From the NCBI RefSeq assembly GCF_003334315.1, contig NZ_QOWR01000018.1: a stretch of DNA of 64,000 nt; one strand, 5' to 3'. The position numbers and the translations under genes are program-made. Of the stretch, positions 49,624 through 50,351 are shown one piece after another (position 1 is the first letter of the stretch; each line of letters starts with the position of its first letter). The notes under the pieces are model-generated. The model was not told the origin of the DNA and made no database searches. It saw only the letters and a list, made by a program, of their open reading frames with translations. The stretch comes from Escherichia coli. GTDB taxonomy: Bacteria > Pseudomonadota > Gammaproteobacteria > Enterobacterales > Enterobacteriaceae.

Positions 49624-50013
49624 ATGATGTTTCTGAAACAGGGCACGTTTAATTATGAAAAACAGTCCGTGGTGCTCAGTGAGCTGTCCGGGCTGCAGAG
49701 AATTGAATATCTGGCGTTTGTTCAGCAGCGAACGGCAAAGTTTGATGCCGGGGAGGGAGAACTGCCGGAGGCTGAACGACAGATTGCTTTTCTGCGGATG
49801 GGGATGGATATCAATGCCTGGCTGGTTTTCCGCTCACTGTGGAATGCGGATCAGTCTAAGGATGTAGAGACGCTTTGCGCATCCGTTATTACAACATGGT
49901 CGTATGATGCCCTGGGTGCGGGGGCGGAGATGGTTCTGTCGCTGAGCGGTATGGGGGCCATTGATAATGCCGGGGATGATGAGCATGAGGCGCTGACGCC
50001 GGAAAAGTCCTGA
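49624..50013 (+). CDS. Tail assembly chaperone G
   Basis: MMFLKQGTFNYEKQSVVLSELSGLQRIEYLAF resembles lambda gpG; AGGTGGAG SD. Confidence 0.8.
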   Translation: MMFLKQGTFNYEKQSVVLSELSGLQRIEYLAFVQQRTAKFDAGEGELPEAERQIAFLRMGMDINAWLVFRSLWNADQSKDVETLCASVITTWSYDALGAGAEMVLSLSGMGAIDNAGDDEHEALTPEKS

Positions 50014-50351
50014 CGCGGGAAATGCAGTTTGTCATGCGGCTTGCCCGGGAGTTCCGGCGGGCAGACTGGCGGCGGATGCTGTCGGAAATGTCGGCCACTG
50101 AGCTTGGTGAGTGGGGCGATTATTTCCGGATGCAGAGCTTCAGTGATGTGTGGATGGATGCGCAGTTTGCCTCGCTGAAGGCATTGATCGTGAGAATGGT
50201 GTCCGGCAGCAGTGATGCTGCGGTGGCTGATTTCAGCCTTTTACCGGAAGAGAACGGGATACCGGAGCGAACGGACGAAGAACTGATGCATCTTGGAGAA
50301 GGTATTTCCGGAGGTGTGCGTTATGGACCAGATAGCCAACCTGGTCATTGA
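49989..50351 (+). CDS. Tail assembly protein T segment (expressed as a G-T fusion by -1 frameshift)
   Basis: -1 frame is open from 49989, overlapping the last 8 codons of G. Confidence 0.65.
   Translation, partial: GADAGKVLTREMQFVMRLAREFRRADWRRMLSEMSATELGEWGDYFRMQSFSDVWMDAQFASLKALIVRMVSGSSDAAVADFSLLPEENGIPERTDEELMHLGEGISGGVRYGPDSQPGH

Follow-up and report, generated by a model that had tools for sequence, protein, structure and literature searches.

How is gene T of a lambda-like tail module translated when the heptamer on which lambda shifts frame is missing from the G-T junction? In lambda, tail assembly requires the G-T fusion, which is produced in a low, fixed proportion to G (PMC5009743). 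A module of this kind, with an intact V-G-T-H-M-L-K-I-J gene order, is found on the + strand at 48.8-59.2 kb of the window, which is the whole 64,000-nucleotide stretch of Escherichia coli DNA analysed here. A preliminary description had read its G and T genes as a case of the conserved G-T frameshift with a non-canonical slip sequence. The lambda heptamer GGGAAAG was said to be absent, and this is correct: the motif has 15 copies in the window, but none of them lies in G or T, and the nearest is at 47607.

The major tail gene (48817-49566) and the tape-measure gene (from 50323) enclose two short reading frames. Both of the genes that flank G and T, V and H, could be identified. The region consists of the following features.

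48817-49566, + strand: V homologue (major tail gene), placed by the tail module gene order
49587-49610, + strand: terminator-like hairpin GCCCCGGTTATCCGGGGC followed by TTTTTT, between V and G, read from the sequence
49624-50013, + strand: gene G, tail assembly chaperone of 129 amino acids, with the stop TGA at 50011-50013 (TIGR01674, phrog_42)
50007-50351, + strand: T-frame part after the predicted shift, with the first codon GTC (Val) at 50007-50009 and the stop at 50349-50351 (TIGR01715)
50323-53397, + strand: tape-measure gene H, which overlaps the end of T (TIGR01541, E 9.3e-93)

Gene G starts at ATG 49624, has a second ATG at 49627, and is preceded by the SD sequence GGTGGAG (-5.9 to -6.4 kcal/mol). 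It matches the phage_lambda_G equivalog TIGR01674 (E 3.5e-55, 185.7 bits, cut-off 74.45). For the T frame the match is the phage_lam_T equivalog TIGR01715 (E 4e-40, 136.5 bits, cut-off 77.35), and both scores exceed the curated cut-offs. G also matches phrog_42, and PHROGs concurs with the assignment of G as well as that of T. Close homologues of G carry PF06894, and those of T carry PF06223. H, which in lambda is the binding partner of G and GT, has the same start as in phage mEp460, with an SD of GGAGGTG (-10.8 kcal/mol).

The mEp460 and Ayreon records annotate this same hairpin between V and G as a terminator, and in N15 a putative terminator stem-loop is annotated at the equivalent place. 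The hairpin and its T-run are context and lie outside the frameshift signal. Phages mEp460, cdtI, Tritos and others match the region at 99% identity, and copies of the G-T region at 95% identity or more are present in 1847 of 5426 complete E. coli genomes. The locus is the G/GT pair of an mEp460/cdtI-like lambdoid prophage of E. coli.

The next question is where a shift between the two frames could take place. Read directly, the 3' end of G is ...GCG CTG ACG CCG GAA AAG TCC TGA, where TGA is the stop at 50011-50013. Relative to G, the T frame is -1. It is open from 49989, as had been stated, up to its stop at 50349-50351, and it overlaps the last eight codons of G as described, the 25 shared nucleotides being seven sense codons and the stop. 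Since the T frame opens at 49989 and G stops at 50011, a productive -1 shift must fall within 49989-50010. Within and around this interval lie three features.

49986-49988, + strand: TGA in the T (-1) frame, the 5' limit of a productive -1 shift, from the sequence and the translations
50001-50007, + strand: candidate slippery heptamer G_GAA_AAG, read as Glu-Lys in the zero frame and as GGA-AAA in the -1 frame, based on the sequence and its aligned position
50011-50013, + strand: G stop, one codon past the heptamer, the 3' limit of the shift window, from the sequence

The best candidate had been given as CCGGAAAAG at 49999-50007. It is found there, and the heptamer within it occupies 50001-50007. 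No other in-phase Z_ZZN or X_XXY_YYZ motif is present at 49989-50010, which leaves G_GAA_AAG as the sole shift-prone motif. An alternative slip site further upstream, which the preliminary description had envisaged, was not found in the overlap, and alignment likewise supports G_GAA_AAG.

The heptamer follows the X_XXY_YYZ rule in one half. Bases 4-6 are identical (A_AAG), so that AAG can be exchanged for AAA. Bases 1-3 are G, G and A, and the -1 codon GGA mismatches tRNA-Glu at its middle position (PMC6924986). The shorter NNA_AAG hexanucleotide, or Z_ZZN pattern, is present as GAA AAG at 50002-50007, where the 5' codon ends in A.

Taken by itself, the bare GGAAAAG motif is unremarkable, with 13 copies in the window against 9.9 expected. 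The in-phase background was taken from the 7111 codons of the long ORFs at 42-64 kb, of which 22 show an in-phase A_AAG and one the in-phase G_GAA_AAG. For the approximately 7 in-phase positions of the overlap, this amounts to a chance of about 2% for A_AAG and about 0.1% for the full heptamer. The site exceeds chance because it is conserved in relatives, and not because it is present in the window.

Conservation was surveyed by three IMG/VR scans with T-protein alignments, centred on the window, on N15 and on lambda. These yielded 240 loci with 118 distinct junctions, which carry the following heptamers.

G_GAA_AAG: 78 distinct junctions
G_GGA_AAG (the lambda heptamer): 29 distinct junctions
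G_GCA_AAA, then directly TAG: 5 distinct junctions
A_GAA_AAG: 4 distinct junctions
A_AAA_AAG: 2 distinct junctions
G_GAA_AAA, then TAG: 1 distinct junction

The list sums to 119 instead of 118, as the tallies of heptamers and of stop spacing were made separately and differ by 1-2. The proportions are only indicative because the sampling leans towards the three query centres. The 78 G_GAA_AAG junctions are of two kinds, divided approximately into 29 in which the G stop follows one codon later, as in the clade of the window, and 49 in which it follows five codons later, as in N15. Over the 118 distinct junctions A_AAR is invariant, which supports the earlier proposal that tRNA-Lys could slip from AAG to AAA, the element common to the whole family.

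In a gap-free DNA alignment of 20 diverse relatives, G_GAA_AAG occupies the same columns as the G_GGA_AAG of lambda. An alignment with lambda G-T had been suggested as a check, and the site falls exactly on the lambda heptamer. In these 20 relatives conservation is poor over the 30 columns that precede the heptamer, and the first invariant columns are G32, A34, A35 and A36, the heptamer being columns 31-37. The limits of the shift window vary among relatives: the T frame opens 60 to 6 nt ahead of the heptamer, and the G stop begins 7 to 22 nt past the first base of the heptamer, in some relatives immediately after it. When the permissible shift windows are intersected over the 240 related loci, only 13 nt are shared, and these lie around the heptamer.

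Synonymous codon choice was examined in 69 groups defined by the heptamer and the upstream peptide. Where Glu is present at the site it is encoded by GAA in all 55 of 55 groups (usage elsewhere in G 0.61), and Lys is encoded by AAG in 64 of 69 (usage elsewhere 0.41). In 65 of the 69 groups bases 1 and 2 of the heptamer are the same, against 28.5 expected from codon usage. Base 1 is the wobble base of four different preceding codons (GCG, CCG, GTG and CTG). As the 69 groups share ancestry, the counts describe a tendency and do not amount to a formal test. The synonymous positions of the heptamer look to be under constraint.

The equivalog matches, the aligned position and the conservation all support the reading as a conserved G-T frameshift. 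Judged from these comparisons, G_GAA_AAG at 50001-50007 is very probably a functional -1 shift site that gives rise to a GT fusion.

The single tRNA-Lys of E. coli is better at reading AAA than AAG. In the mechanism proposed here, most ribosomes would read G to the stop at 50011 and produce the 129-amino-acid chaperone. A small fraction would slip back by one base on G_GAA_AAG and continue in the T frame, giving a fusion of 242 amino acids. In the driving step, the single tRNA-Lys (anticodon mnm5s2UUU) would leave AAG and re-pair with the overlapping AAA. The tRNA-Glu in the P site would shift from GAA to GGA; its first and third pairs would be kept, with a G.U tolerated in the middle. Such a slip would be a near-cognate version of the tandem slip on G_GGA_AAG in lambda, and an RNA stimulator would apparently not be needed. 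By analogy with lambda, many copies of G and a few of GT would then coat the tape-measure protein H, and the T part would recruit V, with both G and GT absent from the virion.

Several published observations bear on how well this sequence should slip. Of the tetramers in E. coli, A_AAG is the one most prone to shifting (PMC4066793); G_GGA_AAG ranks with the best heptamers (PMC4066793; PMC5009743), and NNA_AAG motifs are in natural use, IS1222 and B. subtilis cdd being examples (PMC5009743). Peng et al. 2019, working with a reconstituted E. coli system, chose AUG GAA AAG as a "less slippery" control, and it gave mainly the zero-frame product (PMC6924986). In a lacZ reporter, A_AAG without a stimulator remained near background, at about 0.15% (PMC4066793). 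Because unstimulated A_AAG is near background, the efficiency at the window site may be well below the few per cent of lambda. A search of the available literature for GGAAAAG as a phage slip site returned nothing relevant except Peng et al. 2019, and it turned up no experiment on the phage of the window or any tail gene with G_GAA_AAG.

Stimulatory elements were sought on both sides of the heptamer. Downstream, the fold of 50008-50100 is no better than that of shuffled sequences (z = -0.82). The consensus fold of 20 relatives reaches -1.6 kcal/mol with 0 compensatory pairs and no covariation, and a search of Rfam returned only a chance lncRNA match (E 0.32). A conserved hairpin or pseudoknot 5-9 nt downstream of the heptamer was accordingly rejected on the z-score and the weak consensus fold. 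Upstream, one sequence resembles an SD.

49987-49990, + strand: SD-like GAGG, 10 nt upstream of the heptamer (-5.6 kcal/mol), unsupported as a stimulator

Among the in-phase positions of G this GAGG has a rank of about 0.25, that is, about a quarter of the positions score as well.

The same product, or the same T protein, could in principle be made in other ways. The simplest would involve no frameshift, with T being translated on its own from ATG 50022 or ATG 50034, both of which are present in the window.

50022-50024, + strand: ATG taken as the T start in the mEp460 record, probably no real start (anti-SD pairing -1.1 kcal/mol)

Database records lend themselves to this reading: the mEp460 record starts T at the equivalent of 50022 and the Ayreon record further downstream, and RefSeq/PGAP lists T as a protein of its own. 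Among the RefSeq rows examined for the clade of the window, G and T are separate and there is no GT fusion. The starts themselves are not conserved, however. ATG 50022 is essentially without an SD (-1.1 kcal/mol, where G, H, M and L have -5.6 to -10.8) and is present in 5 of 65 distinct relatives; Gifsy-1, Gifsy-2, Fels-1 and lambda have CTG, CTT or AGT in its place. ATG 50034 is present in 28 of 65, and no T start position is conserved among these 65, nor was a conserved ribosome-binding site belonging to T found. The T region of lambda is described as being produced via the gpGT frameshift product (PMC5009743), and separate translation would leave the nucleotide-level conservation of the heptamer unexplained. 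Independent translation of T is therefore very unlikely. Still less credible is a fusion made by RNA polymerase stuttering on the A run of the heptamer. This run has four A, and only three in the relatives with G_GGA_AAG. To be productive in bacteria, such transcriptional slippage takes a homopolymer run of about 7 or more; four A are far too few, so that this route is hardly worth considering. A nearer competitor keeps both the site and the product but has a single tRNA slip. Here tRNA-Lys would move from AAG to AAA and tRNA-Glu would not re-pair, either in an A-site event on the NNA_AAG "hexanucleotide" or in a P-site slip while UCC waits in the A site. That A_AAR is the sole invariant part of the motif across the family agrees with this, as does the existence of the variants A_GAA_AAG and G_GCA_AAA, in which P-site re-pairing would be poor. 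Single-tRNA slippage on NNA_AAG is also documented in E. coli and is used by IS1222 (PMC5009743). It does not, however, predict that base 1 equals base 2 in nearly all groups, an agreement from which it can be argued that P-site re-pairing matters. Furthermore, the variants with a poor P site all have the G stop directly after the heptamer, with one exception (L136, an A_GAA_AAG junction whose stop lies 5 codons past the heptamer), which suggests that they are compensated by a different pause signal. The four A_GAA_AAG junctions, in which the first P-site pair would be lost, indicate that P-site re-pairing is favoured and not obligatory. Because base 1 looks selected, the near-cognate tandem slip is somewhat preferred to a pure single-tRNA slip, which is a possible but less probable account.

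A further alternative concerns what assists the slip. In the clade of the window, frameshifting could be raised by a boost that lambda lacks, coming from the internal SD-like GAGG or from the nearby G stop. Between 7 and 14 nt upstream of the heptamer, the strongest anti-SD pairing averages -6.07 kcal/mol in this clade, against -2.81 for the in-phase background, -0.87 in the N15-type clade and -0.92 in the lambda-type clade. The spacing of 10-13 nt fits the range reported for dnaX (PMC6924986), and in the clade of the window and its closest variants the stop follows 0 or 1 codon after the heptamer. When the sequence is recoded synonymously with the peptide fixed, however, the pairing of the window gives p of about 0.4, and the median for the clade is 0.39. 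Moreover, the N15-type phages use the same heptamer without such an element, and many positions within G of the window pair equally well. The acidic, Gly-rich tail of G accounts for the SD-likeness, and no stimulator is claimed for this reason. A clade-specific boost is thus improbable, and it is a slightly longer shot still that the mEp460/Gifsy clade offsets a poor slip site with a dnaX-like SD 10-13 nt upstream, a near stop, or both. Were this true, the clade would have a stimulated architecture distinct from the unstimulated heptamer of lambda, and possibly a different G:GT ratio.

A near-cognate slip on G_GAA_AAG, unaided by such elements, would lead to a definite protein. The predicted GT fusion is encoded by 49624-50007 joined to 50007-50348 and has 242 amino acids. 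Across the junction it reads ...EALTPEK/VLTREMQFVMRLAREF..., the stroke marking the shift. Aligned with the GT proteins of lambda, N15 and LLS it is collinear, with no gap at the junction (EALTPEK/VLTREMQF against EPVSAGK/VFDGELSF and EPVTAEK/ALASELKF). When the predicted fusion was used as a protein query, none of the hits was an annotated frameshift product. There were only three singleton proteins, each with a deletion that fuses G to T.

This is an ordinary site of the lambda G/GT frameshift family. The description of its slip sequence as non-canonical holds in that the sequence breaks the X_XXY_YYZ rule. The novelty that this implied does not hold, as G_GAA_AAG is the commonest heptamer among the sampled relatives and is already annotated in N15 and LLS. 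The main value of the result is the correction of an annotation in a very common E. coli prophage. It can be added that the heptamer used by most of the sampled lambda T family is one that biochemists consider unfavourable for slippage. These phages could therefore be used to test the in vivo cost of the middle G.U in the P site. Neither the annotation point nor the survey of heptamers changes the understanding of G-T frameshifting.

Among known systems, lambda is the reference. It has homologous G and T genes in the order V-G-T-H, with T read in the -1 frame and overlapping G at its 3' end. Its slip site lies at the identical aligned position and involves the same A-site event, in which the Lys codon AAG is exchanged for AAA. 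The two differ in the heptamer, which is G_GAA_AAG in the window and G_GGA_AAG in lambda. In the window the P-site tRNA is tRNA-Glu, with a middle G.U in the -1 frame, whereas in lambda it is tRNA-Gly, which re-pairs fully. The G stop follows the heptamer after one codon in the window and after five in lambda, and the T of the window is without the C-terminal duplication of about 30 amino acids that is found in lambda T. No conserved RNA stimulator was found for the window, and Levin and colleagues are reported to have found in 1993 that the lambda frameshift needs none. The lambda G/G-T frameshift was described by Levin, Hendrix and Casjens 1993 and by Xu, Hendrix and Duda 2004, 2013 and 2014 (as cited in PMC5009743). 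The ratio of G to GT in lambda is about 30:1, which the same source gives along with the chaperone roles (PMC5009743).

A second point of comparison is E. coli dnaX, which has A_AAA_AAG with an upstream SD and a downstream hairpin. Like the window, it relies on tRNA-Lys moving from AAG to AAA, and the window has its GAGG 10 nt upstream. In contrast to dnaX, the window has no hairpin downstream, and its SD-like element is indistinguishable from composition. Efficiency is expected to reach a few per cent at most in the window, against about 50% for dnaX.

The IS frameshift sites use downstream pseudoknots or hairpins, and this downstream structure has no conserved counterpart at the window site. 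Their NNA_AAG hexanucleotides, such as G_CGA_AAG in IS1222 and, outside the IS elements, A_CGA_AAG in B. subtilis cdd (Licznar et al. 2003, as cited in PMC5009743), share with the window an A_AAG core, a single tRNA-Lys and incomplete re-pairing of the 5' codon in the -1 frame. They differ in that GAA retains two of three pairs plus a G.U in the window, where base 1 is apparently selected. For these reasons, the window site stands nearer to a degenerate heptamer than to an NNA_AAG site.

The same heptamer, GGAAAAG, occurs in the same phase and at the same aligned position in N15 (genes 14/15, NC_001901), phi80, LLS and HK225. In the GenBank record of N15 it carries a misc_feature, "slippery sequence for -1 translational frameshift". 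That of LLS has a feature, "minus-one programmed translational frameshift site GGAAAAG", together with a joined CDS. The record of HK225 names the downstream gene "tail assembly protein GT". The aligned codons, free of gaps, are GCG GGA AAG in lambda, GCG GAA AAG in N15 and phi80, and GTG GAA AAG in LLS. This group is distant from the window, with T only about 41-43% identical. Its stop lies 5 codons past the heptamer instead of one, its preceding codon is GCG or GTG where the window has CCG, and unlike the window it has no upstream SD-like sequence.

Finally, the Salmonella prophages Gifsy-1, Gifsy-2 and Fels-1 belong to the clade of the window and share with it both CCG GAA AAG YCC TGA and the one-codon stop spacing. 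The Gifsy records describe T as belonging to a G frameshift hybrid; they neither mark the slip site nor give a joined CDS. In Gifsy-1 and Gifsy-2 the junction is identical to that of the window, CCG GAA AAG TCC TGA. The three phages are only 67-70% identical to the window in DNA, and the junction motif is still kept.

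Lambda's own heptamer, GGGAAAG, occurs 15 times in the whole window on both strands, against 7.8 copies expected (15 was reached in 0 of 100 shuffles), and none of the 15 copies lies within G or T. In more distant relatives, variant slip sites directly adjoin the stop codon of G: CTG GCA AAA TAG, CTG GAA AAA TAG and GCA GAA AAG TAA.

Variant heptamers in related G-T loci (locus coordinates)
1501-1507: variant heptamer in loci L057, L059, L060, L062, L063 and L064
1498-1504: variant heptamer in loci L077, L079 and L088

Poor re-pairing in the P site would be expected at most of these stop-abutting variants. 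The G stop beside a variant heptamer may serve as a pause signal for slippage of tRNA-Lys.

The Shine-Dalgarno (SD) likeness of the upstream sequence in the N15-type and lambda-type clades was assessed over loci L090-L249. In both, the SD likeness of the 7-14 nt upstream of the heptamer falls below the level predicted by synonymous recoding (median p 0.95 for N15-type and 0.98 for lambda-type), as if SD-like codon pairs were avoided. The window's clade shows the opposite tendency.

The G-T region is present in 1847 of 5426 complete E. coli genomes. In the mEp460 record (locus L003, 1963-2292), T is annotated as starting at an ATG lacking a ribosome-binding site; the equivalent ATG in the window, at 50022-50024, is found in only five of the 65 distinct relatives. 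RefSeq/PGAP also represents T as a separate protein (matches H21-H49), and no GT fusion for the window's clade is listed among the RefSeq rows examined. In-frame G-T fusions can be found as three singleton database proteins of 212-233 amino acids (P0001, P0002 and P0003). These arise from deletions of differing lengths near the end of G, and they could be products of degraded prophages or of assembly errors. A frameshift is annotated in none of the three.

Two further features of the window lie, respectively, between V and G and upstream of the tail genes.

Features upstream of the tail chaperone genes (window coordinates)
44926-47145: open reading frame of 739 amino acids, upstream of the tail genes
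49587-49610: strong terminator-like hairpin between V (the major tail gene) and G, GCCCCGGTTATCCGGGGC followed by TTTTTT

By analogy with similar prophages, the open reading frame appears to encode a fusion between a head protease and the major capsid protein. The hairpin may leave G, T and H less strongly expressed than V. The same element is found in mEp460 and Ayreon, where it is annotated as a terminator; at the equivalent place, the N15 annotation marks a putative terminator stem-loop and that of HK225 a stem-loop.
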